From Geotalea uraniireducens Rf4 (GTDB taxonomy: Bacteria > Desulfobacterota > Desulfuromonadia > Geobacterales > Geobacteraceae): a stretch of 32,000 nucleotides of DNA. The stretch covers positions 4,410,001 to 4,442,000 of the forward strand of contig NC_009483.1 of assembly GCF_000016745.1 (NCBI RefSeq), read 5' to 3'. The notes below the pieces were generated by a model. The model was not told where the DNA came from and searched no databases. It was given only the letters and a program-made list of their open reading frames with translations. The position numbers and the translations under genes were made by a program. This document shows, piece after piece, positions 3,492-25,388 of the stretch; positions within the stretch are counted from its first letter, which is position 1; each line of letters begins with the position of its first letter.

Positions 3492-4607
3492 CTACTCTTC
3501 ACTCTTCACTGCCTTATAAATGTCCAGCGTCTCTCTGGCGGCCGCCTCCCAGGAAAAGGACTTCGCCCGGCGACGTCCCTGCTCCCGCATGGCCGTCGCC
3601 GTTTCTTCATTTTCTAGCACTCTGAGAAGCGCCGCGGCAACCTCCTCCACGGCCATGGGAGGGACGGCAATCCCCGCATCGCCCACCACCTCCGGCAGGG
3701 ATGTGGTGTTGGACGTTATCACAGGCACGCCGCACGCCATGGCTTCCAAGGGCGGCAGGCCGAACCCTTCGAAGAGCGACAGGTAGACGAAAACCCGTGC
3801 GCCGTCGTAAATAAAGGGGAGTTCCCCGTCGGGGACAAAACCGGTGAATACCACCTCGCCGTCGAGATTGAGCTCCCTGATCCGGCTGAACAGCCTGTCG
3901 TAAAGCCACCCCTTGCGACCGACGATGACGAGTTTCCCCGCAAATGCCCCCTTGCCTTTCAGCAGGCTGAACGCCTCGATGAGGGTGTCCAGGTTCTTTC
4001 GCGGCTGGATGGTCCCCACATAGAGGATGTAATCAGCCGGCAGCCCGTATTTCCCCCTGACGGCCGCGCCGGCAGCGGCATCACGGGACTCGATCATGGC
4101 AGGATCGAAACCGAGCATGATCGCCCTGATCTTTTCCGGCGCCACCCGGAAATCGGCCATGATCTCCTGCCTGGCGTGTTCCGAATCGGTGATGATGAAA
4201 GCGCTCCTCCTGGCGGCGATGGGTATCTGCAGCCGCCAGTAGATCCGCGCAGCCAGCTTCTCCGTTTCCGGGTGCTTGATGGGGATCAGGTCGTGCAGGG
4301 TGACCACCACCGGGCATGGTGCGAAATAGGGGATCGCGCTCTTCGGACAGTGGAGGATGTCCACCCGCTCCCTCTTGCAGGCAAGGGGGAGCAGCACATG
4401 CTCGCGCCAGAGCCGGGTGAGCGGGTTTTTGCCCGGCAGGACCATTTCCCGTGCCGCGGGGAATCTGCCCAAATGAACGGGATCGTTGTAGAAAACAATA
4501 TACTCGTTTTCGCGGTCAATGCGGAGCAGCGCTTCAAGCAGCCCCAATACATACGTCCGCGGCCCCCCTTGGGTGGAAATGGTTGAAGCATCAATGGCGA
4601 TACGCAC
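3492..4607 (-). CDS. GT4-family (GT-B) glycosyltransferase
   Basis: '[20 protein letters not shown]' EX7E-type motif. N-terminus '[11 protein letters not shown]...'. I choose GTG at 4607-4605, which has AGGAAA 6-7 nt upstream. The track ORF start at 4703 would overlap the upstream gene by 86 nt. Confidence 0.85.
3495..3510. repeat. Short heptanucleotide array (CTCTTCA)x2.3; AGTGAAG on the coding strand
   Basis: Units at 3495-3501 and 3502-3508, plus 'ct'. Encodes the last codons (...VKSEE) immediately before the TAG at 3494-3492. Confidence 0.7.
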
Positions 4608-6895: not shown

Positions 6896-7852
6896 CTAGC
6901 CATTGCGCCGCGTCCTGTCCACAAACCGGCGGCGAAAGATGGAGTAGAGCATACGCAGGTAGCGGATGGCCAGAAATAGCAGCACCGGCCGGCAGGGGCA
7001 ATAGTCGCGGTAGAGCTTGTAATTGGCCCGGAAATAAAAGGGGGAGCGGTAACTGGTCAGCATCTCTCTTACCCGCTCCCTGTTAAGCGCCTCGGTCCCG
7101 CTTGACACCGCAGTCCTGTTGTACACAACGCTTTTAGGCTCCGTAAGGAGGCGATAGCCGCGCCGCCGCGCCCTTAGTGAGAACTCCGCGTCCCCCTGGT
7201 ACTGGGGGCAGTTCTCCCGGTCGAAAAAACCGATCTCGGCGAACGCCGCCGCCGGAATCAGGGTGGAACTGCCGTGCAGCCAGTCGCAATCGCTGGTCCG
7301 GTCGAAATCAATCAGGTCGCGGCGGTTGTTGCGGTCCCTTATCTCCCCCACGTACCAGTTTATGACGCCGCCGAAGGAAAAGATGAAGTTCCGGTCCGAG
7401 TAGTCGTACATCTTCGAGGTAACGAGGCTTTTGGGGTGGCTCCGGGCGGTCTCCACCAGAGGCTCGATGAAGTCCGGCTCCACCACGTTGTCGTTATTTA
7501 TGGCCAGGATAAAGTCACCGCCCCGCCGCAAGGCCTCCCGGACACCGAGATTCGTGGCCCCCGACCACCAGAGGTTGCCGTCGCCCCTAACGATAGACAC
7601 TTGGGGAAAGCAGGCGGCGATGGCCTCCCTGGAGCCGTCGGTCGAGCCGTCATCTACGACGATGACCTCCAGATTCGGATACGTTGCGCACGCCATCGAT
7701 TCCAGAAAGGTAAGGGTTTCGTCCTTGCCGTTGTGGATCGGTACTACCGCTGCGACCTTGGGGAACCGAGGTTCGAGGAACGAGGTCCGAGGAACGAGGT
7801 ATTCACGCCGACACCAAACCCTTTGCCAGGTAGTCCTTGAACCCATCACCAT
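6896..7852 (-). CDS. GT2-family glycosyltransferase
   Basis: 'AAVVPIHNGKDETLTFLES...LEVIVVDDGSTDGS' GT-A motif. The only in-frame starts are ATG 7852, GTG 7849 and ATG 7846. ATG 7852 has AAGGA 6 nt upstream, supplied by the last ATAAAGG unit. The N-terminal ~30 residues are partly encoded by CCTCGNN heptamers. Confidence 0.8.
   Translation of the reverse strand: MVMGSRTTWQRVWCRREYLVPRTSFLEPRFPKVAAVVPIHNGKDETLTFLESMACATYPNLEVIVVDDGSTDGSREAIAACFPQVSIVRGDGNLWWSGATNLGVREALRRGGDFILAINNDNVVEPDFIEPLVETARSHPKSLVTSKMYDYSDRNFIFSFGGVINWYVGEIRDRNNRRDLIDFDRTSDCDWLHGSSTLIPAAAFAEIGFFDRENCPQYQGDAEFSLRARRRGYRLLTEPKSVVYNRTAVSSGTEALNRERVREMLTSYRSPFYFRANYKLYRDYCPCRPVLLFLAIRYLRMLYSIFRRRFVDRTRRNG
7767..7801. repeat. 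Degenerate heptanucleotide array (CGAGGNN)x5 inside the 5' end of the GT2 gene
   Basis: cgaggtt, cgaggaa, cgaggtc, cgaggaa, cgaggta read directly. 'cgaggaacgagg' occurs twice (7774-7785 and 7788-7799) and is the exact reverse complement of 7902-7913. Confidence 0.9.
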
Positions 7853-7859
7853 TCCGCGT

Positions 7860-7922
7860 CCTTTATCCTTTATCCTTTATCCTTTATCCTTTATCCTTTA
7901 TCCTCGTTCCTCGTGCCTTTAT
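7860..7922. repeat. Heptanucleotide tandem array (CCTTTAT)x6 + CCTCGTT + CCTCGTG + CCTTTAT; ATAAAGG on the coding strand
   Basis: Six perfect units at 7860-7901, then three more heptads to 7922. Contains the TAA stop of gmd (7893-7891) and the SD for the downstream GT2. Confidence 0.97.
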
Positions 7923-8886
7923 AGAGCTCCATCTCGCTCTCCACCATCTCGCGGATGATCTCACCCAAGGATTTTGTCCTGGCCCAGTGCAAACGGGTGC
8001 TGATTTTTGCCGGATTGCCGCACAGCTGCACCTGTTCCGCCGGGCGGAAGAACTTCGGGTCCACCTTGACATACCTTTCGTAGTCAAGGCCGAGACATGA
8101 AAAAGCCGTCGCCACAAACTCCCGCACGCTGTGGGTTTCGCCGCTGGCAACAACAAAGTCCTCCGGCGCATCAGCCTGGAGCATCAGCCACATGGCATTC
8201 ACATAGTCAGGTGCATAGCCCCAGTCCCGGTATGCGTCCAGGTTGCCGAGGGTCAAGGTATCCTGGAGCCCAAGTTTGATCCGCACTGCCGACGAGACGA
8301 TTTTCCGCGTCACGAACTCGTAGCCGCGGCGAGGAGACTCATGATTGTAAAGGATGCCGGTGCAGGCGAACATGCCGTACTGGCTCCGGTAGTTCTTCAC
8401 CAGGTGATAGCCGGACACCTTGGAGATGCCGTAGATGGAACGGGGATTGAACGGTGTCGCCTCGTCCTGCGGCGCATTGGTCACATTGCCGAACATCTCG
8501 CTAGTGCCCGCGAAGTAGAAACGGCAACCGGGCGCGAATTCCTTGATAGAAGCGAGGAGATAGTGGGTGCTGTTGACGTTGTTGTTCAATATGGAGATCT
8601 CATCCTCGAAGGAATAGCTGACGAAGCTGGAGGCGGCCAGGTGGTAACACTCATCGGGAATGACGTCCTTCACCGTCTTAATGATAGAGAGGACGTTGTC
8701 CAGGGAAGCAACGTGGAGGTGGATCCTGTCCGCAAGATGGCCAATGTTCTTCAGCTTGTGGGCGGTATCCTCGATGGCTGTCCGCCGGACGATGCCGTGG
8801 ACTTCATAGCCTTTCGCCAGGAGCAGTTCCGCCAGGTATGAGCCGTCCTGACCGGCCAAGCCGGTAATGAGCGCTTTTTTCTTCAT
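7891..8886 (-). CDS. gmd: GDP-mannose 4,6-dehydratase (short form), copy 1
   Basis: 'MKKKALITGLAGQDGSYLAELLL', 'GILYNHESPRRGYEFVTRKI', 'RDWGYAPDYVNAMWLMLQ', 'FFRPAE' are canonical Gmd motifs. The last ~9 codons are encoded by the heptamer array. Confidence 0.92.
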   Translation of the reverse strand: MKKKALITGLAGQDGSYLAELLLAKGYEVHGIVRRTAIEDTAHKLKNIGHLADRIHLHVASLDNVLSIIKTVKDVIPDECYHLAASSFVSYSFEDEISILNNNVNSTHYLLASIKEFAPGCRFYFAGTSEMFGNVTNAPQDEATPFNPRSIYGISKVSGYHLVKNYRSQYGMFACTGILYNHESPRRGYEFVTRKIVSSAVRIKLGLQDTLTLGNLDAYRDWGYAPDYVNAMWLMLQADAPEDFVVASGETHSVREFVATAFSCLGLDYERYVKVDPKFFRPAEQVQLCGNPAKISTRLHWARTKSLGEIIREMVESEMELYKGTRNEDKG

Positions 8887-9969: not shown

Positions 9970-11214
9970 CTATACGTCATCGATTATCTCTTGATATAAA
10001 TCCGCATACCTTTTCGCGACCCCATCCATAGCAAACTCTTTTTCCACCTTTTCCCGCGACATGCGACACAACCGTTCTCTCCGGGTATCATCGGCAAGGA
10101 CCCAGTCGATACCACGGGCAAAGTCGTTGGTGTCAAAGGAATGGGCAAGGTAGCCGGTTTGTTCATGGACAACAATATCGAGCAGTCCGGTGGAGGCAAA
10201 CGCCACGACGGGAGTTCCGCACGCCATTGCCTCTGACGCAGTCTGGCCAAAACTCTCCTGCATCGACGGAACGCACATGACATCTGCTGCGGCGTAAGCC
10301 AGAGTCAGGCTTATATCGTCATGCAGTTTACCCAGGCAATGAACCGGCAACGGTATATCCGATAAATCGGCAGGCTGTGAAGCACCAAAAACCAGCAATT
10401 CCGCTTTCTCCGACCAACCGTCTGCAACAACCTGCAAAGCTGACTTAAGGTGGTGGAAACCTTTATTGTGGTCACCAACTATTGTTGCACCGAACAAGAT
10501 CAATTTTTTATCCTGCGGCAACCCCAGGAGTTCGCGGGCAACCCCTTTATTCACTTGTTTGTAACGACTCAAGTCCAATCCATTGGGGATTACTTCGACG
10601 CGTGCTTCCCGGAACAGGGAGCTTGCCTTGACACAATCGCCCATCCAATGACTTGGCGCAACTATGGTCAAGTTCAACCCCTGCCAGGATTTCGCTTTTA
10701 GATTCCATTCCCAGCGCGTTAAATCGTAGTCTCTTTTAGAGCCAAGTTGTGGACAGGCGCCGCAAGAGTTGCAATAGCGCATACACTTACCCGGGAGGTT
10801 ACATCCGCCTGTAAAAGCCCATGAATCGTGCATCGTCCACACTAAAGGCCGGTTAAATTTTCGTAGCGCCGTTACGGGCACAAATCCACAGCAGATCCAA
10901 TGCAGATGCACCAGATCAGGAGCGATCCCCTCAATGGAGCCATGAATATTGCTGGGCGCCCAGGATACCCCCCACGAACTCTGCTGACGGTTGGGGTAAA
11001 ACTTCAAGGGCAAGAGATCAAGGTAGGTGCACAGCTTGTTGATCGCTATTCCAGGTAATCCCTGTGAACCTGTTACGGTCGAATCCTGGCTCGTTTTGTA
11101 CTGGACAAGCATCCGCGAATTGACATCTATACTTTGCAACCCTTTATGCAGACGATACGCGGCACGTCCAGCGCCTCCTTCAATATCGTAAGTGCTGATG
11201 TGGGCAATGCGCAT
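9970..11214 (-). CDS. GT4-family glycosyltransferase
   Basis: 'MRIAHISTYDIEGGAGRAAYRLHKGL' N-terminus and 'ESFGQTASEAMACGTPVVAF' EX7E motif. Confidence 0.85.
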   Translation of the reverse strand: MRIAHISTYDIEGGAGRAAYRLHKGLQSIDVNSRMLVQYKTSQDSTVTGSQGLPGIAINKLCTYLDLLPLKFYPNRQQSSWGVSWAPSNIHGSIEGIAPDLVHLHWICCGFVPVTALRKFNRPLVWTMHDSWAFTGGCNLPGKCMRYCNSCGACPQLGSKRDYDLTRWEWNLKAKSWQGLNLTIVAPSHWMGDCVKASSLFREARVEVIPNGLDLSRYKQVNKGVARELLGLPQDKKLILFGATIVGDHNKGFHHLKSALQVVADGWSEKAELLVFGASQPADLSDIPLPVHCLGKLHDDISLTLAYAAADVMCVPSMQESFGQTASEAMACGTPVVAFASTGLLDIVVHEQTGYLAHSFDTNDFARGIDWVLADDTRRERLCRMSREKVEKEFAMDGVAKRYADLYQEIIDDV

Positions 11215-11225
11215 AGACTTTTATC

Positions 11226-12401
11226 CTACACTAAAGATAGCTTTAAAAGCAATGAACAGGAGTCTTTCAATCGCTCTTTTGAGTGATTTCTCATATAACC
11301 TTCGTAATCCGGCCCAATGCTCTCGTCATCCGCCATACCTGTGGCAAGCTGGCGAATTGCCCTAATGCAGGCATCGACATCATCTTGCTTGATCACTTTC
11401 CCCAGCCTGAATTTTCGGACCCTTTCTGCCATGCAAAAACCATCACTGACTATAATGGCTTTTTTAAAACTAGCCGCTTTTGTCAGCAAATTACTGCTGT
11501 GATAAAACTTTTGATATGCGGCAAAGACAATATCGCTTGCGCAAACCAGCGCGTTAAAAGAAGGCTCATCAGGAATAAATCCTAAATGGAAAAAACAATT
11601 AGATGGACAGGAGGCAATGAAGTTTTCGATATGGTCCAATTCTTTCCTTGTGAAGGTATACTTGTAAAAAACCCCGGCAAAGACAAAAAACAATCCCTCG
11701 TCCACAAGTTTTTTTGCAACTTCAACTAACATCAGCGTTCCTTTTCGCTTGTCAATACATCCGAAAAGGCCAACGATCTTCCTGCCTCTAGCTCTCTCCT
11801 TTATTTGTCCCACGACAGGATAATTCATATCTGGAGCCGATAAATCTGCAAAATCAGGAAAGGAGATTACTGGCTTGGCGAGTTCCCTTTCGAGTGTCTC
11901 TTTGACGCCCTCGTCAAGTAAGGCAACTGATTTGCAGCCGGAACTAAATAATGGAGCGTCACGCACTGGGGTCGGTACCCGCAAGCGCTCCGGAGCAAAA
12001 TAAAGACCAGACCAGACATATGGGAAAACAGCGTCCACAATCCAAGGTTTAAGATGTTTGGCAAAGTACCCATCTAGATAAGTAAAAAACACCAAGTCAG
12101 GCAAAATACCGGTATTTGCCGCTGCCTTCTTTATTGCCAAGGCAGCAGCCTTCCACTGTCTTGTAGTTTTGACCACCCCGGGAAGGAAAGGCTGACATAT
12201 CGGCTCCGTATACTCATATGGGCAAAAGCGCCCAGCCATTTCCCCACAATTCTCTGTTATCCAGTCACCAACTTCAACGGGATTCGGACAGAAGACAACA
12301 ACGTTATAGCCCAATTCCAGTATTGTTTCAGTAAGCAACTTAACGTATGTCGGGTGATGTCCGGTCCAGACTCCGTCAATCAATGCGATGATTTTAGTCA
12401 T
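11226..12401 (-). CDS. Divergent GT-B-fold-like protein (putative glycosyltransferase), function unknown
   Basis: Start placed at ATG 12401 (MTKIIALIDG...), preceded by AGGAG. Two Rossmann-like halves ('KIVGLFGCIDKRKG...FVFAGV', 'SSNLLTKAASFKKAIIVSD') but no clear EX7E motif. Confidence 0.5.
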   Translation of the reverse strand: MTKIIALIDGVWTGHHPTYVKLLTETILELGYNVVVFCPNPVEVGDWITENCGEMAGRFCPYEYTEPICQPFLPGVVKTTRQWKAAALAIKKAAANTGILPDLVFFTYLDGYFAKHLKPWIVDAVFPYVWSGLYFAPERLRVPTPVRDAPLFSSGCKSVALLDEGVKETLERELAKPVISFPDFADLSAPDMNYPVVGQIKERARGRKIVGLFGCIDKRKGTLMLVEVAKKLVDEGLFFVFAGVFYKYTFTRKELDHIENFIASCPSNCFFHLGFIPDEPSFNALVCASDIVFAAYQKFYHSSNLLTKAASFKKAIIVSDGFCMAERVRKFRLGKVIKQDDVDACIRAIRQLATGMADDESIGPDYEGYMRNHSKERLKDSCSLLLKLSLV

Positions 12402-12433
12402 GAAACTCCTGGCGGACCCTTTCCGAACCGGAT

Positions 12434-12586
12434 TCAAAACCAATGTTCAGGAATGAGAATTTCGGCTTGATTCAGCGTCTCAAACAGTGCTTCATTCGCC
12501 ACTATCCTCTTACCAAAGCGAGATTTGTGCCGAAACGGATTGGCTTCATACGGGTAGCATTGAATGCCGCAAGATGGCAGCAGAGA
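12434..12586 (-). pseudogene. Decayed C-terminal fragment of an rve (DDE integrase-core) transposase
   Basis: My translation of the minus strand gives '...YEANPFRHKSRFGKRIVANEALFETLNQAEILIPEHWF*'. The stretch 'EALFETLNQAEILI' resembles the conserved '...E(I/L)F.TL.EA..LIE.WR..YN' tail of IS3-type transposases. It is truncated and has no start codon. Confidence 0.4.
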
Positions 12587-12646
12587 TCATAGGTATAGTT
12601 TAGGTTAGGTTAGCCCCCAAGATCTCCACTTAAAGATAAACTTGGT

Positions 12647-13609
12647 TTATATCAGTTTAAACCATCGCCTCGTGGATCGTCTCTTAGGCTTAATAAATTT
12701 ATAAAATAATACCCACACTATATCTAATAAACTTATAGATACAGCTTTTTTTGTATAATTACTTAGCCAGAGAGATGGCAATAGAAATTTTCGCCCTTCA
12801 TAGTACTCACGTCTCCACTCAAAAGCATAAACTTTACCTGTTGTATTGACATTCAAGTACTGTTCTGCAAACCAGATTCTGGCCTGCCTATAGCATCTAT
12901 TAATATAATTCGATTTGTCACTTATGGTAATAGATCCTTCATGCTTTCTAAAGAAAGAAAGCGGTTTAGAAACAAATGCTATTTGCGCGTATTCTTTAGC
13001 AACGAGCAAATATATTAAAAGATCTGGACCTGCACCATGCTCATAAAAATTTTTGATTGTTGGAGATGGTATTTCTTCCACTAGATTTTTTCTCAGGTCA
13101 TCAGTCCTGAAAATGGCACATCCTGGAGAATATGGAACATTACCTGCAAACAATGACTCCTGGATAAAGTATGAAGAAGGCAATTTCCCCGTCTTCTCTG
13201 CTAATCCATACTGCTCTTGCCCTGTCCAAGGTTCTGTACCCATTATCGCTAGAGTAAAAACAAAACCTACTTCTTCATCACATAAAAAAGGAAGCGTTTT
13301 TTCTAAAAAAAGGGGATCAATAAGGTCATCTGAAAAAAGGATCTTACCAAAACAACCTCTTGCTTCATCAATGCAACGCTGCCAATTTCGGACAGGGCCG
13401 ATGTTGGTTTCATTACGAAAGATTCGAATGCGCGAGTCCTGTCGGGCGAACGTTTTACATACTTCCCAAGTCTTGTCTGTACTGGCATTGTCAACCACAA
13501 TGACTTCAATATCAGTTATGGTTTGTTCAATTGCAGACTGGATGCAAGGCCCAATAAAGGACTCTCTATTATAAACTGGTATCAGTATGCTAACTCTTGG
13601 GATAATCAT
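12647..13609 (-). CDS. GT2-family glycosyltransferase (AT-rich, probably foreign)
   Basis: 'VSILIPVYNRESFIGPCIQSAIEQT...IEVIVVDNASTDKT'. Hand-counted lines give 28-38% G+C. Confidence 0.88.
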   Translation of the reverse strand: MIIPRVSILIPVYNRESFIGPCIQSAIEQTITDIEVIVVDNASTDKTWEVCKTFARQDSRIRIFRNETNIGPVRNWQRCIDEARGCFGKILFSDDLIDPLFLEKTLPFLCDEEVGFVFTLAIMGTEPWTGQEQYGLAEKTGKLPSSYFIQESLFAGNVPYSPGCAIFRTDDLRKNLVEEIPSPTIKNFYEHGAGPDLLIYLLVAKEYAQIAFVSKPLSFFRKHEGSITISDKSNYINRCYRQARIWFAEQYLNVNTTGKVYAFEWRREYYEGRKFLLPSLWLSNYTKKAVSISLLDIVWVLFYKFIKPKRRSTRRWFKLI

Positions 13610-13689
13610 TTCAATAACAACAGTCCTTTTCTGCAGATGACGGAGTTAATATTTTTGCTGCAAGTGAAGTTTGTCTTATTATTAGTTCC

Positions 13690-15027
13690 TTATTCCACGG
13701 CACTCAAGGCTACCCTTTTTCTACGCAGAACACACCAAGGAAGTACCCAGGCTGCCGTCAGCGAGAACGAGGCGATAAGGGCATAAACTATTCCTGCCAC
13801 TCCGAACCTGGGAGCTAGGGATACCTGGAGGAGTACAGTAATGACCGCCTGGGCCGGGATATAGATGACAAAGGGACGCAGGTAGCTCATGCTCTGCAGA
13901 ACCATGGCAAAGGTATCGCTCCAGATGCGTATTACGTTATAGCCACCCATAATGACAATAAACAGTACCGGAACCATAACCGCCTTACCCGGCGCAAGGA
14001 GGTGAATCAACTCTGGCATAAAGAAAGCAAGCAGCAGGGTCGCTCCTGAAAGGAGCAGCACTCCCATGACAATATATTGCTTCACGTAGCCCATCACCAC
14101 ATGCCAGTCATTCCGGGCCACCGCTTCAGCACAAACCGGCCATACAGCAATCAGAAGGGCTGTGTAAATAAAATAAATCAGTCCGAATATTTTAGATGTC
14201 AGGTTGTAGACGACAATTTCATTGGCCGGTAAAAAACGCGCCATCACCAAATAGTCCACCTGGAGCACCCCTGCCGCCATGATAGCGGAAAGCCAGAATT
14301 TAAGCCCCCGTTTCATCAATGGCCACAATATCTCCCGCTTGACAGAACTGCTCCGCTGCAGACTTCCTGTAAACTGCAGCAGGAATGCCACAGCAGGAAG
14401 CATCCCTGCGGGCCCAAATGCGGCGACAAGGCTCCAATACAACTTGTGTTCAAGTGGGCTCCGCGCCACAAAAACAATCGCAGCAAAACTGATAAGAGAC
14501 GCTACAGCCGGCACTACGTTTGCCAAATATCCTTTTTGCTCGGCGTACCATATCCGATAGGCAATCCCGCCGAAACAGGTCGCTATCGATATCACTCCTG
14601 TGATGAAAAAATGTCGTGCCTTTTCAGCATCGTTTAGGAACGGAAACCCCTTTAAGATGAGCGGCGCCAAGAAGGGACTGGCGAAGAACAGGAATAAAAT
14701 GCTTAGTAACATGAGAAAGATGGCGATGACCCCCGCCATCGCAATGAAATCCTCGTAGGGTTGCTTCCCTGCCCGCCGTTCGGAAATATGGTTCTGCAGG
14801 CTCGTGCCAACCCCCATGTCTGCCAAGAGGTACCATCCCTGTAAGCCCCCCAACACTGCATAGAGGGCATACTGTTCCGTACCAAGACCTTGAATCAATA
14901 TACGAATACTAAACAGCCCCACCACCGCCGTTACCAGACGGCTGATCCATGCACTAGCCGCAACCAGCAGATGGGAAGGTATGCGGTTCAAGATTCCCGG
15001 TTTAGCATTGACGGTCAAAGATGTCAC
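13690..15027 (-). CDS. wzx: Wzx-type oligosaccharide flippase (MOP superfamily)
   Basis: Polytopic throughout. The N-terminus '[30 protein letters not shown]' is typical of polysaccharide-biosynthesis/Wzx proteins. GTG start at 15027 overlaps the tyv stop; TTG at 15018 is an alternative. Confidence 0.8.
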
Positions 15028-20975: not shown

Positions 20976-21060
20976 CTGGGAACTGGGAACTGGGAACTGG
21001 GAACTGGGAAGTCCATTACCGATCCCCGATCCCGGATCCCAGTTCACCGGTTTTCTTCAG
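20976..21060. repeat. Composite element copy 1: (CTGGGAA)x5 + conserved 31-nt G/C-run core with (CCGATCC-like)x3
   Basis: Five perfect units at 20976-21010. Core 'taccgatccccgatcccggatcccagttcac' is at 21017-21047. The TAA stop of the DUF2304 gene (21018-21016) lies between array and core. On the coding strand the array is followed by ATTTTTTATT. Confidence 0.95.
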
Positions 21061-22127: not shown

Positions 22128-24116
22128 TCAATCCGGGAACTGGGAACTGGGAACTGGGTTTTTACCGATCCCCGACCCCAGATCCCCGTTCACTGACTTC
22201 AGCAGCTTTGCGGCAAACTCCGGATTCAGCGACTTAAGGATTACATATTGGTCGGTGGCCTTCTGCGTCTCCTTGCTCGCCGCATAGGCCAAGCCCAGAT
22301 TATAGTGGGCCTCGCTCAGGCGTGGATTCATGGCAATGGATTTTTCATAATTATCTATGGAGTCAGCAAGCTGTCCCATGGAATCATAGGCCAATCCAAG
22401 GTTGTTATAGCCGAGGGCAAACCATTCGTTCTGGTATGCGGCGTTCATGCCCATGCTCGCATCAAACAACTCATAGGTCGGGCTGTAACGGCCGGCATAG
22501 GTCCCGAGCTGGCCAAGCGCTATGCCGATATTGTTCCACGCATCGGGATGCCCCGGAGAAATGCCTATGGAGCGGATCAACGCAGGTATCGCCTTTTTCG
22601 GCTGATGCTTCTTCAAATAGGCATAGGCCAGGTTGTTCCACGGCCGCGACTTGTCGGGGGACTTTGCCGCCACATCCTGCCAGAGGGTCGTCTCGTCCTG
22701 CCAGACCATGTTGCGCCTGAAGGTTGCCGTTGCAAGGGAGACGGCGACCAGCAGCAGGGCGATGAATGCTATTCCGGCAATCTGTGGCCTCCGCACAGCC
22801 AATCGGTCCACCGCCAGCACCACGGCCGTTGACAGCGCCATGAAAAATCCGATCGACGGCAGGTAGACCCTGTGCTCGAAGATAACGTCAACGATCGGGA
22901 TGACGCTCGACTCAACCGCCAGGGCGATGAAAAACCAGAAAATGCCGAAGGCTGTGAGGCGGTAAACGGCGGTCGGCGGTCGGTGGTCGGTGGTCGATGG
23001 TTGATGGTAAAAGGCGGTCGGAGGTCGGTGGTCGGTGGTCGATGGTGAACTATCCAACGTAGAACGTAGAACGTAGAACGTAGAACGATAAACAAAATAA
23101 ATCCCCACGCCGAAGATCGCCAGCAGCAGCAGGAAAGAGAGGAACACAGGGGCATTGAAAAAGGAGTGGGCCACCGGAAAGTCATGGTCAAGGTTCTGCC
23201 CTACCGGGAAAAACAGCAGCCTGAGATAGGTGACGATCACCCGGAACTGGGTGAAGAGATAGTCAAGCCGTGGCATCTCCGTCTGGACCATGGTTGCCGC
23301 CTCCAGCCTCCCCAGGAGCTGTCCCGCCCCGGAGGAGCCGAGCATGCTCAAAGGGATGATGGCCAGGGTGAGGAGAAATGCACCGATGAACATGACCCGC
23401 TTGGCGATGCTCCCCCTGAAAAACATGAACTCGTAAAGAATCACCGTGAACGGCAGGGTAAAGGCGATCTCCTTGGTTTTCATGGCAAGGACCGCCGTTA
23501 AGAGCGACAGGAGATAGCAGGCTGCGGCAAACAGCTTTCCCCGCCGGCCGCCCCCCCCCTGCTCCAACCGCGCCATGATGTAGAGGACGAGGGAACCAAT
23601 GTAGAACATGGCTGCAAGTGAAGTGAAGCGCTGGACAATGTAGGTTACCGCCTGGGTCTGGAGCGGATGGGCAACGAAGAGGAGCGCCGCAAACAGCGCA
23701 ATCGGTCCGCTGAAGCGCCCCCTCTCCCCCTCTTCCGCCGGAGCGAGCAACGGGGTCCTGAAAGTGAGGGTCACCAGGGTATAGACAAGGAGGGCGGTCG
23801 CAAGATGGATCGCCAGATTGACCAGATGATAGCCGAAGACATCGAGACCGTTCAGCCGGTAATTGACGGCAAAGGTGAAGTCCCCCACCGCCCGGCTCCC
23901 CTTGACGGCGAAGGGGTCGGCGAACGGATCCACGTTTCTCACGACCGGGTTGCCGAGGATGTTGGCAATATCGTCGAAGTTGAAGGTGGCGGTGAAGGTG
24001 TTGGAGTAGGCCAGAAGCCCAAGGGAGATAACGAGGAGAAGATGAAGCACGGTCGCAAACCGCGTCCGCCGGTAAACAAAGTCACTGAATCTGCTTGTCA
24101 TGGATAGAGAGTTCAC
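22128..24116 (-). CDS. PMT/TMTC-like GT-C membrane glycosyltransferase with C-terminal TPR domain
   Basis: 'FNFDDIANILGNPVV' acidic loop after the first helix and 'EHRVYLPSIGF' match PMT_2/TMTC-type enzymes. C-terminal TPR-like repeats include 'WNNLAYAYLKKHQPKKAIPALIRSI', 'AWNNIGIALGQLG', 'YNNLGLAYDSMGQLADSIDNYEKSIAMNP' and 'AHYNLGLAYAAS'. GTG start at 24116 has AGGA about 7 nt upstream. Confidence 0.75.
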   Translation of the reverse strand: MNSLSMTSRFSDFVYRRTRFATVLHLLLVISLGLLAYSNTFTATFNFDDIANILGNPVVRNVDPFADPFAVKGSRAVGDFTFAVNYRLNGLDVFGYHLVNLAIHLATALLVYTLVTLTFRTPLLAPAEEGERGRFSGPIALFAALLFVAHPLQTQAVTYIVQRFTSLAAMFYIGSLVLYIMARLEQGGGGRRGKLFAAACYLLSLLTAVLAMKTKEIAFTLPFTVILYEFMFFRGSIAKRVMFIGAFLLTLAIIPLSMLGSSGAGQLLGRLEAATMVQTEMPRLDYLFTQFRVIVTYLRLLFFPVGQNLDHDFPVAHSFFNAPVFLSFLLLLAIFGVGIYFVYRSTFYVLRSTLDSSPSTTDHRPPTAFYHQPSTTDHRPPTAVYRLTAFGIFWFFIALAVESSVIPIVDVIFEHRVYLPSIGFFMALSTAVVLAVDRLAVRRPQIAGIAFIALLLVAVSLATATFRRNMVWQDETTLWQDVAAKSPDKSRPWNNLAYAYLKKHQPKKAIPALIRSIGISPGHPDAWNNIGIALGQLGTYAGRYSPTYELFDASMGMNAAYQNEWFALGYNNLGLAYDSMGQLADSIDNYEKSIAMNPRLSEAHYNLGLAYAASKETQKATDQYVILKSLNPEFAAKLLKSVNGDLGSGIGKNPVPSSQFPD
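22134..22202. repeat. Composite element copy 2: (CTGGGAA)x3.6 + conserved 31-nt core
   Basis: Units at 22134-22158. Core 'taccgatccccgaccccagatccccgttcac' at 22163-22193 matches copy 1 at 28 of 31 positions by hand alignment. The flanking 'cttcag' is also shared. Here the GT-C/TPR ORF reads through the whole element. Confidence 0.9.
22968..23089. repeat. Intragenic heptanucleotide arrays: two blocks of GGCGGTC/GGTGGTC/GATGGTN units, then (GAACGTA)x4-5
   Basis: Block 1 at 22968-23009 (6 units), 'aaa', block 2 at 23013-23047 (5 units), 'aactatc', then caacgta + gaacgta x3 + gaacgat (23055-23089). Encodes '...STFYVLRSTLDSSPSTTDHRPPTAFYHQPSTTDHRPPTAVY...'. Confidence 0.95.
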
Positions 24117-24219
24117 CCGGAAATCCTGTCAGAATTGAAGGTAATGATCATTTGAAAATAGCAAAAAACTATTTTTGCCACGAATAACACGAAAAGCATC
24201 TAATGTATAGGCCCTTTTT

Positions 24220-24372
24220 GGCGGTCGGCGGTCGGCGGTCGGCGGTCGGAAGTCAACCCATAGGACTACAGTCGGCGGTCGGCGGTCGGAAGTCAACCCA
24301 TCGACCATCGACCATCGACCATCGACCATCGACCACCGACCACCGACCACCGACCACCGACCGCCGACCGCC
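24220..24372. repeat. 153-nt composite heptamer palindrome: (GGCGGTC)x4 ... (GGCGGTC)x2 ... (TCGACCA)x5 (CCGACCA)x3 (CCGACCG)x2
   Basis: Units mapped by hand. 'ggcggtcggcggtcggaagtcaaccca' is directly repeated (24234-24260 and 24274-24300). 24357-24372 is the exact reverse complement of 'ggcggtcggcggtcgg', which occurs in several registers in the left arm. Starts 2 nt after the GT2 stop. Confidence 0.97.
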
Positions 24373-24374
24373 TC

Positions 24375-25388
24375 TCATCTATCCAGCAATTCCTTGAAAG
24401 ACATCCGGTATCGCTGCAACAGGCGGGCCATCTCCCTGCCTGAGATTCTCCTCTTTTCCATCACCAGCGCCCGTTTTTTCAGCATGGCCGGCGCACCGCA
24501 CAGTGCGTCCCTGGTCCCTTTGGCGATCGCCTTGAGCAGGGCATTGCGGGAGCCGCTTGCAAGGAATTCCCCACCGGAGCCGCTGGCGAAAATGACCGCC
24601 CGCGCCTGCTCCAGGTAGCGGACCAGGGTGAAAAACGGAACCAGCAGCAGCATAGCGAGGGGAAAGCACTTCAACGCCACCCAGTAATGGTTACGTTCCA
24701 CCAGATAGAGCTTGAACGGCGAAAAGACCCCGCCGGTCCTGGAATACTTGTGATAGACCACCGCCTGCGTGGCGAGGAGCGCTTGCCACCCCGCCAGCCT
24801 GCACCTTAGCCCCAGGTCGGTATCCTCGGCATAGGCGAAAAAATCGTCGTCGAAGAAACCGGTCTCGTCCAGCATTGTCCGCCGGTAGAGGGCAACGCAG
24901 GCGCTGGGGAAGAGGATCTCCTCAACCTCTGCCATATTCATGGTTGAATAGCGCTTGAGGCGGAACCTCCCGCGGGACATGCCGTCGCGGCAGACGCCAT
25001 GGCCGAGGGAATCGATCCGGTCCGGCTCGTCAAATGAACAGATCCGGCTCCCCACCATCCCCACCCGCGGGTCGCTGTCCGCCACGGCAACAATGGTTGC
25101 CAGCCAGTTTTCATCAGCCCTGGTATCGTTGTTGAGGGCAACGATATACTCGCCCGAGGCATGGGTAAGGCCGACGTTGTTGCCGGTGGCAAAGCCGGTG
25201 TTTTCCTTGAGCTCGACGAGCTTCACCCAGGGGTAGCGCTCACGGAGAAACCCTACAGACCCGTCGGAAGAGCCGTTATCGACGATGATCACCTCGAAGT
25301 CCTGGAAGCTCTGGGCCGACAGGCTGTCCAGGCAGACAGCCAGGTGCTCCAGGCCGTTCCAGTTGACGATTATTATGGAGACTCTCAT
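24375..25388 (-). CDS. GT2-family glycosyltransferase (rhamnosyltransferase-like)
   Basis: 'VSIIIVNWNGLEHLAVCLDSL...FEVIIVDNGSSDGS...NTGFATGNNVG'. ATGA overlap with the upstream gene. Confidence 0.88.
   Translation of the reverse strand: MRVSIIIVNWNGLEHLAVCLDSLSAQSFQDFEVIIVDNGSSDGSVGFLRERYPWVKLVELKENTGFATGNNVGLTHASGEYIVALNNDTRADENWLATIVAVADSDPRVGMVGSRICSFDEPDRIDSLGHGVCRDGMSRGRFRLKRYSTMNMAEVEEILFPSACVALYRRTMLDETGFFDDDFFAYAEDTDLGLRCRLAGWQALLATQAVVYHKYSRTGGVFSPFKLYLVERNHYWVALKCFPLAMLLLVPFFTLVRYLEQARAVIFASGSGGEFLASGSRNALLKAIAKGTRDALCGAPAMLKKRALVMEKRRISGREMARLLQRYRMSFKELLDR

Follow-up and report, generated by a model that had tools for sequence, protein, structure and literature searches.

What does a long palindrome of heptanucleotide repeats do directly behind a glycosyltransferase gene, and does it act as RNA, as DNA or not at all? 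The question is raised by a 32,000-nt stretch of the Geotalea uraniireducens Rf4 genome (contig NC_009483.1, positions 4,410,001 to 4,442,000 of the forward strand; hereafter the window, in whose own numbering positions are given), which comprises one long surface-polysaccharide cluster with every gene on the minus strand and co-directional. At positions 24220-24372 of the window, an inverted pair of heptanucleotide arrays forms a 153-nt palindrome, a stem-loop directly behind a gene for a family-2 glycosyltransferase (GT2). The element belongs to a class of heptamer tandem repeats that is abundant in some bacteria, including the Geobacteraceae, and is a fast-evolving member of it; it is new within this known class, and a series of orthologous copies makes it unusually informative. 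As to its role, the evidence leans towards a slippage-prone, position-conserved hairpin that would act, when transcribed, as an intercistronic RNA barrier or as an RNase III site.

On the plus strand the element reads (GGCGGTC)4 GGAAGTCAACCCAT AGGACTACA GTC (GGCGGTC)2 GGAAGTCAACCCA (TCGACCA)5 (CCGACCA)3 (CCGACCG)2 CC, exactly as described in an earlier note made from the sequence alone. In the sense direction it begins 2 nt past the TGA stop codon of the GT2 gene (24375-24377), as that note also had it, and ends 119 nt short of the ATG (24101) of the downstream gene, the order being 5' arm, loop GTTGACTTCC, inner 3' arm, spacer TGTAGTCCTATGG, a second GTTGACTTCC and outer 3' arm, all on the minus strand. 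The G/U-rich 5' arm (24298-24372) consists of about 11 graded units, (GGCGGTC)2 (GGTGGTC)4 (GATGGTC)4 GATGG; the earlier note was right about the graded composition but not about the counts (two, three and five), which in the GGNGGTC register are two, four and four plus a partial unit. The first copy of the loop motif (24288-24297) forms the turn of an inner hairpin, as judged from sequence and fold, and is followed by the inner 3' arm (GACCGCC)2 GAC (24271-24287), by the spacer TGTAGTCCTAT with the second loop copy GGGTTGACTTCC (24248-24270), and by the outer 3' arm (GACCGCC)4 (24220-24247), which in the minimum-free-energy structures pairs with the 30 nt that open the 5' arm to give a 30-bp outer helix. 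The spacer and second loop copy lie within a 40-nt tandem duplication of loop and 3' arm, in which a repeat search finds 31-nt copies (24231-24261 and 24271-24301) that are 100% identical. The terminal 16 nt are the exact reverse complement of GGCGGTCGGCGGTCGG, and the several registers noted before proved to be four (24220, 24227, 24234 and 24274). Tandem Repeats Finder reports arrays of 4.3, 2.7 and 10.3 copies in the element (96-100% matches, scores 60-102), which is thus a heptanucleotide simple-sequence repeat in the sense of at least three head-to-tail 7-nt copies beyond chance.

Past the stem, the sequence continues with AAAAAGGG in the sense direction and with CUCUCAUC in the antisense direction, with no U tract in either; sequence and terminator scans thus agree with the earlier view that this is not a canonical intrinsic terminator. 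Scans for sigma-70 promoters and intrinsic terminators around the element returned nothing relevant, and no recognisable promoter spans it. Two candidates picked out by eye, the loop-motif TTGACT as a -35 box whose spacer would be set by the number of heptamers, and TGGCA...TTGCT as a sigma-54 site, were rejected because their spacings are unfit. The covariance models of Rfam 15 have no match anywhere in the window at their gathering thresholds. At E < 1 the sole matches are spurious plant microRNA-precursor hairpins, among them the MIR1437 precursor at 24221-24364 (minus strand), which at 55.5 bits against the 168 required is a generic long-hairpin artefact.

Support for the favoured reading comes from close relatives of Rf4, which are metagenomic contigs obtained by protein search and subsequent contig look-ups, with 91-95% DNA identity in the flanking genes. 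In all four lineages sampled (contig L127, the five contigs L130-L134, Rf4 itself and contig L135), a hairpin anchored by GGCGGTC.../...GACCGCC begins 2 nt after the same TGA and ends before AAAAAG(R)GCCTATACATTA; directly after the stem, L127 reads GUUCUAUU, and L130-L134, Rf4 and L135 read AAAAAG. The 47-nt element of L127 consists, in the sense direction, of GGCGGTCGGCGG, 21 nt and a single 3' arm (GACCGCC)2, with which the inner 3' arm of Rf4 aligns (fold with flanks -36.0 kcal/mol, z-score -4.3). The 77-nt element of L130-L134, identical in the five samples, reads GGCGGTC GATGGTC GATGG A / GTTGACTGCC GACCGCC GAC TGTAGTCCTATGG / GTTGACTGCC (GACCGCC)2 (-43.3, z -4.0), and the 172-nt element of L135 has about 17 5' units, including blocks of GGCAGTC and GGTGGTT, and 3' arms of (GACCGCC)2 GACTGCC GAC ... 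GACCGCC GCCCGCC (-116.1, z -7.7). Folded without flanks, the elements of L127, L130-L134, Rf4 and L135 have energies of -31.6, -37.2, -118.8 and -115.4 kcal/mol, respectively. Length thus changes by whole units at one locus, the 5' arm having 2, 3, 11 and about 17 units in the same order of lineages and the 3' arms 2, 1+2, 2+4 and 3+2. The loop motif is present as GTTGACTGCC or GTTGACTTCC in L130-L135, and the duplicated layout of loop and 3' arm recurs in L130-L134.

Compared with Rf4, the orthologs differ mainly by whole heptamers and by blocks of transition variants, which is, as far as the aligned sequences tell, the signature of slippage-type repeat evolution; the idea that the unit gradient arose by stepwise mutation and amplification of a 7-mer is thereby borne out. 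The occurrence of a stem-loop at the same position in four diverged lineages would fit some role at the level of the hairpin. Among the species-representative genomes, relatives proved to be distant throughout. In the syntenic but more distant Geotalea sp. SG265, whose GT2 protein is 75% identical, the spacer is 92 nt long and has no hairpin: it reads CTGGCTGCCGAAAAGCTATACATTA where Rf4 reads ...CCGACCGCCAAAAAGGGCCTATACATTA, with GGCTGCC-GAAAAG in place of GACCGCC-AAAAAG. An assembly artefact is ruled out, as an independently made short-read assembly of Rf4 contains the array's first 30 nt, up to the point where the contig breaks, and the orthologs share the architecture. In fact, the short-read contigs of Rf4 break at every array, the one that stops 30 nt into the element included, and three Rf4 read sets have 100% identical flanks but end at the arrays, and hence are uninformative on unit number.

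Folding of both strands, which the earlier note had proposed, places the palindrome far beyond chance. Folding energies amount to -120.3 kcal/mol for the sense RNA (z -9.2), -103.5 kcal/mol for the antisense RNA (z -10.2) and -65.4 kcal/mol for the sense strand as single-stranded DNA (z -9.5), with 0 of 200 shuffles as good in each case. The predicted extension of the sense stem by G-U pairs is confirmed, although not at the proposed length of about 28 nt: the longest uninterrupted helix with G-U pairs measures 30 bp in the predicted fold of the sense RNA versus 16 bp in the antisense RNA. The former would have the length of an RNase III substrate (at least about 20 bp of near-continuous double-stranded RNA). 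However, the argument that this asymmetry reveals a role for the sense RNA does not survive the calculation. In a variant-free model, in which all units are GGCGGTC, the sense strand folds at -147.3 and the antisense strand at -131.2 kcal/mol, a gap of -16.1 as against the observed -17.8; the gap arises because of the G/U-rich versus C/A-rich composition and the surplus of 5' units able to self-pair by wobble, not because of the unit variants. The gradient resolves into two mutational events, of which C>T gives a wobble in the sense RNA (gap to -25.4) and G>A one in the antisense RNA (gap back to -17.8), such that one Rf4 variant favours each strand, and the dominant variant of L135, GGCAGTC, is a G>A change for which wobble pairing is possible only in antisense RNA. 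According to these models, the strand asymmetry is a by-product of base composition. Nor does an argument against a purely DNA-level role follow, since the single-stranded DNA fold lies as far from its shuffles as the RNA fold; an origin or a role at the level of DNA is therefore possible.

The element does not stand by itself within the window. A period scan of the 32 kb finds nine arrays of period 7 and none of any period from 4 to 6 or from 8 to 12, in agreement with Tandem Repeats Finder, and a stop codon lies within 5 nt at six of the nine array loci (random mean 0.58; 0 of 20,000 permutations reached six). The array units differ from site to site (TTCACCT, ACTCTTC, TCCTTTA, CTGGGAA, CCGATCC, GGGAACT, AACGTAG and GGCGGTC). 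Two further hairpins, of a second type, lie at downstream junctions on the minus strand. The first, (GGGATCN)3 ... (TTCCCAG)5 followed by AUUUUUUAUU (20976-21040; -36.7 kcal/mol, z -3.1), stands after a DUF2304 gene and before a MarR-family gene and is terminator-like, and the second, (GGGATCN)3 ... (CCCAGTT)3 (22135-22188; -31.6 kcal/mol, z -2.6), makes up the last codons and the stop region of the membrane/TPR gene downstream of the element. The two are homologous, with 77% identity, and one of them is more stable on the antisense strand. The hairpin at 22135-22188 also gives the Rf4 protein a specific tail, DLGSGIGKNPVPSSQFPD, which is absent from L131, L135 and contig L002. At both of these junctions, membrane/TPR to a second GT2 gene (GT2b) and DUF2304 to MarR, inverted heptamer arrays are present in Rf4, L131 and L135 with different units: GGGATCN/TTCCCAG in Rf4, but AGTGAGA/CTCACKA followed by AUUUAUAUUG in the relatives. 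The folds there are well supported in some cases (z -5.1, -3.1, -2.6 and -2.3).

From these observations, a succession of events may be proposed. Replication slippage would add and remove whole 7-nt units in the arms, units altered by point mutation would then be amplified locally to give graded blocks, and the 40-nt tandem duplication of loop and 3' arm would have produced the second 3' arm. The cluster genes are co-directional, and it is therefore inferred that the element is transcribed with the GT2 message. Once transcribed, it would form a hairpin of great stability, its outer helix 30 bp long, immediately behind the ribosome as this terminates, and its effect could resemble that of the repetitive extragenic palindromic (REP) sequences or of RNase III sites, i.e. 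it may serve as a barrier to 3' exonucleases or as a site of double-strand cleavage. The hairpin would thus separate the fates of the GT2 message and of the downstream membrane/TPR gene, which is preceded by conserved sequence of its own, and the length of the arms would be expected to modulate this effect rather than to switch it.

Several points weigh against this interpretation. Co-transcription, cleavage and stabilisation are all inferred. The hairpin could persist by common descent alone, with the relatives only 5-9% apart in DNA, and no clear compensatory base change is found across Rf4, L127, L130-L134 and L135. The one candidate, GGCAGTC/GACTGCC in L135, is not counted as covariation, the 3' unit pairing with GGCGGTC by G-U in the sense minimum-free-energy fold; GACTGCC may in fact derive from a loop-proximal GACTKCC unit. 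Both Rf4 variants destabilise the two strands (sense from -147 to -119 kcal/mol, antisense from -131 to -101), no matching change being seen in the 3' arms, and in these models such weakening of the stem on both strands speaks against strong selection for stability. Furthermore, some relatives have weak hairpins at the remaining junctions (z -0.75 and -1.8), and the heptamer palindromes of other contigs have different surroundings, just ahead of a ribosome-binding site in contig L104, around a start codon in L013 and, by eye, apparently between divergent starts in L117, so that no single positional rule emerges.

Much of the same evidence can be accommodated if the arrays and their inverted copies are neutral by-products of slippage and template switching in tolerated non-coding gaps, persisting by descent only. 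The roughly 8-fold range of the 5' arm among close relatives (2 to about 17 units), with no conserved length, is what such an origin would produce, as are variants that degrade the pairing, arrays that also invade coding loops and C-termini, the replacement of unit sequences at orthologous sites, the similar arrays and palindromes in varied contexts in unrelated metagenome contigs, and a DNA fold as extreme as the RNA fold. Set against these are the hairpin at the exact site in all four lineages, the two other junctions that keep hairpins with swapped arm sequences, a pattern expected from structural constraint, and an excess of inverted partners within 300 nt of heptamer arrays (8 of 63 non-redundant arrays versus 0-1 in reverse-only or complement-only controls). 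A purely neutral history is regarded as a tentative possibility, with the odds against it. Considerably less probable is the strand-specific RNA switch of the earlier note, in which wobble was selected for folding of the sense RNA and the element controls processing, attenuation or a shift of register between the genes. The sense RNA is indeed 17 kcal/mol more stable than the antisense RNA, its helix longer and its registers many (a minimum-free-energy structure representing only 0.0055 of the sense ensemble, and the four 16-nt registers), and the relatives carry, about 50 nt downstream, another G-rich array that could compete for pairing with the C-rich arm. However, the gap is compositional, one variant favours each strand and the main variant of L135 the antisense, the competing array is deleted in Rf4, one of the two other hairpins of the window is more stable on the antisense strand, both Rf4 variants lower the stability of the sense fold as well as of the antisense fold, and no Rfam family matches.

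The location in a surface-polysaccharide locus invites the thought that unit number, at the hairpin and in the in-frame arrays, tunes or switches the genes as in a contingency or rheostat locus. At each of the array sites the number of units varies among close relatives, a single-unit change inside an open reading frame shifts the frame (7 not being a multiple of 3), and hmw1A and phase-variable glycosyltransferases offer precedents. In contrast, five independent L130-type samples share an identical 77-nt element and three Rf4 read sets have identical flanks, which gives no sign of switching within populations, and 119 nt separate the element from the start codon that comes next, with no recognisable promoter spanning the element; this explanation is considered improbable. 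A Rho-independent terminator of the GT2 transcription unit would account for a GC-rich stem just behind a stop codon and ahead of a conserved upstream region of the next gene, and it has in its favour the GUUCUAUU that follows the smallest ortholog, of L127, and the AUUUUUUAUU that follows the sister hairpin after the DUF2304 gene. In Rf4, L130-L134 and L135, however, the stem is followed by AAAAAG with no U tract and the terminator scan finds nothing there, which makes this a poor prospect. Least plausible is that the arrays are DNA-level binding sites for a nucleoid protein or global regulator (of the IHF or HU type) or for the MarR-family regulator of the cluster. Paired tandem repeats have been read as global-regulator sites by Aklujkar et al., and a MarR/TrmB-like gene lies 3.3 kb downstream of the element, but unit sequence and number vary freely between relatives and sites, which a sequence-specific binder could not tolerate, and the G. 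metallireducens consensus GGACCGG is not matched above chance.

Beyond the intercistronic hairpin favoured here, the swapped junctions lead to a broader and rather speculative conjecture, on which little weight is placed, that this lineage of Geobacteraceae actively assembles and reassembles intercistronic stem-loops out of a limited set of 7-nt units. The families observed are GGCGGTC, AGTGAGA, GGGAACT/GGGATC, AAGGTGA and CGTTCTA. AAGGTGA arrays, with up to about 27 copies, recur at non-orthologous sites (984-1009 in the window, 7910-8099 in contig L029, 3700-3775 in L130 and 10-79 in L131), and their recurrence suggests, at the sequence level, that the genomes draw on a few common heptamer families instead of forming units freely de novo; GGGAACT arrays are found in L130 at 2369 and 5708. 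If the conjecture were true, there would have to be a dedicated or hairpin-templated process generating complementary heptamer arrays, by which the hairpin is kept while the units of both arms are replaced together. Such a process might be coupled to transcription and RNase III, as in hmw1A, and would make relative expression within surface-polysaccharide operons tunable.

Known systems provide partial parallels for the element. The REP sequences and bacterial interspersed mosaic elements (BIME) of enterobacteria are intercistronic palindromes without a U tract that can shield the upstream mRNA from 3' exonucleases and so lead to differential expression within operons. REPs have units of about 35-40 nt, one conserved consensus and hundreds of copies, whereas the Rf4 element is made of tandem 7-mers and is unlike the other hairpins of the same operon in sequence. 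Closer in kind are the heptamers of Geobacter metallireducens, in which 49 elements of four tandem GGGACCG/GGACCGG units lie between and within genes, and paired tandem-repeat sites, on opposite strands where stated, form eight pairs of mostly five tandem heptamers, one of them between proB and proA; the authors took these, without test, for RNA elements with a regulatory function or for sites of a global regulator (Aklujkar et al., 2009; PMC2700814). These Gmet_H4 and 'class 3' sites (PMC2700814) resemble the present element in family, in having tandem 7-nt units between and inside genes, in being paired, with variable spacing where stated, and in one case within an operon (proB-proA), but differ in their units (GGACCGG and MTYCTGA versus GGCGGTC) and in a fixed number of four or five units versus 2 to about 17. 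The change in unit number among orthologous copies that is seen for the Rf4 element was not examined for the Gmet sites in that study (PMC2700814). A search of the window with the Gmet_H4 pattern, allowing 2 mismatches, gave two matches, neither in the element, and 9 of 100 shuffles did as well.

The nearest mechanistic parallel is hmw1A of Haemophilus influenzae, in which (ATCTTTC)n forms a long hairpin in the 5' untranslated region that is cleaved by RNase III, with expression tuned by the number of repeats and both expression and the change in repeat number being dependent on RNase III (PMC12721329). The two have in common a 7-nt repeat of variable number in the arm of a long, non-coding RNA hairpin beside a gene for a surface structure, and a stem of RNase III length. 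In hmw1A, however, only one arm is repetitive, the hairpin lies in a 5' untranslated region behind a mapped promoter, and cleavage and phase variation have been demonstrated (PMC12721329), whereas in Rf4 both arms are heptamer arrays, the hairpin directly follows the upstream stop codon, and the element is known from sequence alone. Heptamer arrays have been reviewed in Beggiatoaceae, cyanobacteria and Bacteroidetes (MacGregor, PMC4679880). According to that review, a 2007 survey found heptanucleotides to be the most abundant repeat category in most genomes and attributed this to polymerase slippage, with about 7 nt possibly contacting the polymerase (PMC4679880). The Beggiatoaceae arrays are mostly direct, with one inverted set among 170 (MacGregor, PMC4679880), while the units here are GC-rich and occur as complementary pairs. 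The Beggiatoaceae TAACTGA arrays and the cyanobacterial short tandemly repeated repetitive (STRR) sequences are otherwise alike in a genome-wide excess of tandem 7-mers, with few units, mostly intergenic, at gene junctions or start codons and sometimes in open reading frames. For Nostoc, heptamer arrays that lie close to promoters and start codons are reported in a preprint to have effects.

Catalogues of tandem heptamers exist for cyanobacteria, giant sulfur bacteria and Geobacter, the oldest of them going back decades, and offer neither a mechanism nor a demonstrated role. The present locus offers a natural series, with one hairpin at one position in four sizes in genomes 5-9% apart in DNA, and with two neighbouring junctions that swap arm sequence. 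G. uraniireducens Rf4 is cultivable, so that it is directly testable whether the arrays change by slippage of whole units on laboratory time-scales and whether the relative expression of neighbouring glycosyltransferase genes depends on stem length. In practical terms, short-read assemblies break at heptamer arrays, and genuine genes acquire in-frame peptide repeats from them.

Heptamer arrays of similar build occur well outside these genomes. The GGCGGTCGGTGGTC junction is carried only by the same-strain contig L080 among the first 80 loci, and the graded junction is not matched in viral contigs. When metagenomes were scanned, the junction GGTGGTCGGTGGTCGATGGT retrieved 43 contigs with GC contents of 0.35-0.72, most of them with GGTCGNT-family arrays; several are graded, such as L120, and several carry inverted partner arrays (L104, L117 and L095). 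The relatives L029 and L013 also contain heptamer arrays and inverted pairs. The gradient of L120 is long, TGTCTCG > GGTCTCG > GGTCCGG > GGTCGGT > GGTCGAT. The arrays with inverted partners are located at 9471-9637 in L104, where the array ends at an AGGAGG ribosome-binding site, at 5896-6055 in L117 and at 1151-1334 in L095.

The GT2 gene upstream of the element (24375-25388, minus strand; Pfam PF00535, E 2.5e-27) encodes a protein 100% identical to ABQ27946.1 / WP_011940595.1 of G. uraniireducens Rf4 (cluster member P0121). The downstream gene (22128-24101, minus strand), identified by open reading frame and Pfam, encodes a membrane protein with multiple passes and, at its C-terminus, TPR repeats; its syntenic counterpart in Geotalea sp. 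SG265 is 59% identical, those of L131 and L135 are 93-95% identical. The TPR half of the earlier 'GT-C/TPR' label is thus confirmed by Pfam; the GT-C half found no backing, the Pfam search of this protein giving C-terminal TPR matches only and no match over the 480-aa membrane part. An exact-protein look-up returned no record for the product, probably since the internal arrays split the gene in short-read assemblies. Directly 3' of the hairpin, the sequence AAAAAGGGCCTATACATTAGATGCTTTTCGTGTTATTCGTGG (24178-24219, minus strand) is conserved in L127 and L130-L135 and partly in Geotalea sp. SG265; it has no sigma-70 consensus match, and may serve the downstream gene as a promoter or other regulatory region. 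Within it, TTCGTGTTATTCGTGG (24178-24193) is what a deletion of 152-160 nt between TTCGTGKTATTCGTGG direct repeats has left behind in Rf4. The segment lost (compared with L130 7126-7301 and L135 7215-7382) comprises a second G-rich array, GGCGGTC GGCGGTT GATGGTC GGTGGTG, and an AT-rich part, both still present in L127, L130-L134 and L135.

The GGCGGTC family is represented in the window by the element and by one other array (22961-23046, plus strand), which lies in frame inside the membrane/TPR gene, where two tandem 45-nt copies graded as GGCGGTC > GGTGGTC > GATGGT give PSTTDHRPPTA twice. This array is inverted relative to the 5' arm and forms with 24344-24372 a 29-bp perfect inverted repeat (100% match). 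An invertible segment bounded by this repeat (24344-24372 / 22968-22996, 1.35 kb apart) is unlikely, as there is no recombinase gene in the window and no junction evidence. Over 22961-23087 the GGCGGTC-family copies are followed by (AACGTAG)4.6, all in frame within the same gene. The internal loop with these arrays is the only hypervariable part of the membrane/TPR protein among the 93-95% identical relatives, where it also stays in frame but encodes other heptamer-derived peptides: in L131 the (PSTADRR)n run is longer and includes an inverted pair of G-array and C-array within the reading frame, and in L135 the place is taken by (ACTCACA)5. In L130, a 73.7-kb metagenome contig, synteny with Rf4 ends at the internal arrays (8392-8478) and the membrane/TPR gene is called at 356 aa; past the break lie trpA and a chemoreceptor gene on the other strand, which points either to genuine rearrangement at the array or to an assembly that is chimeric.

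Elsewhere in the window, purine-rich arrays resembling ribosome-binding sites stand on the sense strand at gene junctions, namely (AGGTGAA)3.7 at 984-1009, (GAAGAGT)2.4 at 3494-3510 and (TAAAGGA)6.6 at 7859-7904, the last of which stops 7 nt before the ATG at 7852; they recall the TAACTGA arrays upstream of start codons in Beggiatoaceae. The cluster as a whole encodes GT1/GT4, GT2 and GT9 transferases, sugar dehydratases, an aminotransferase, a MatE-like transporter and the MarR-type regulator. The genes upstream of the conserved GT2 gene (L127 1-2440 and L130 1-6000 versus the window from 25389 onward) differ between Rf4/L135 and L127/L130-L131, the latter having other GT2 genes and an AAA_14/DUF4143 ATPase gene there, and cassettes have therefore been exchanged right beside the hairpin locus. 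The region 11000-14000, which contains a GT1-like gene, a GT2 gene and part of the MatE-like transporter gene, has a GC content of 42-45% compared with 55-60% elsewhere and probably entered the polysaccharide cluster as a cassette by horizontal transfer.

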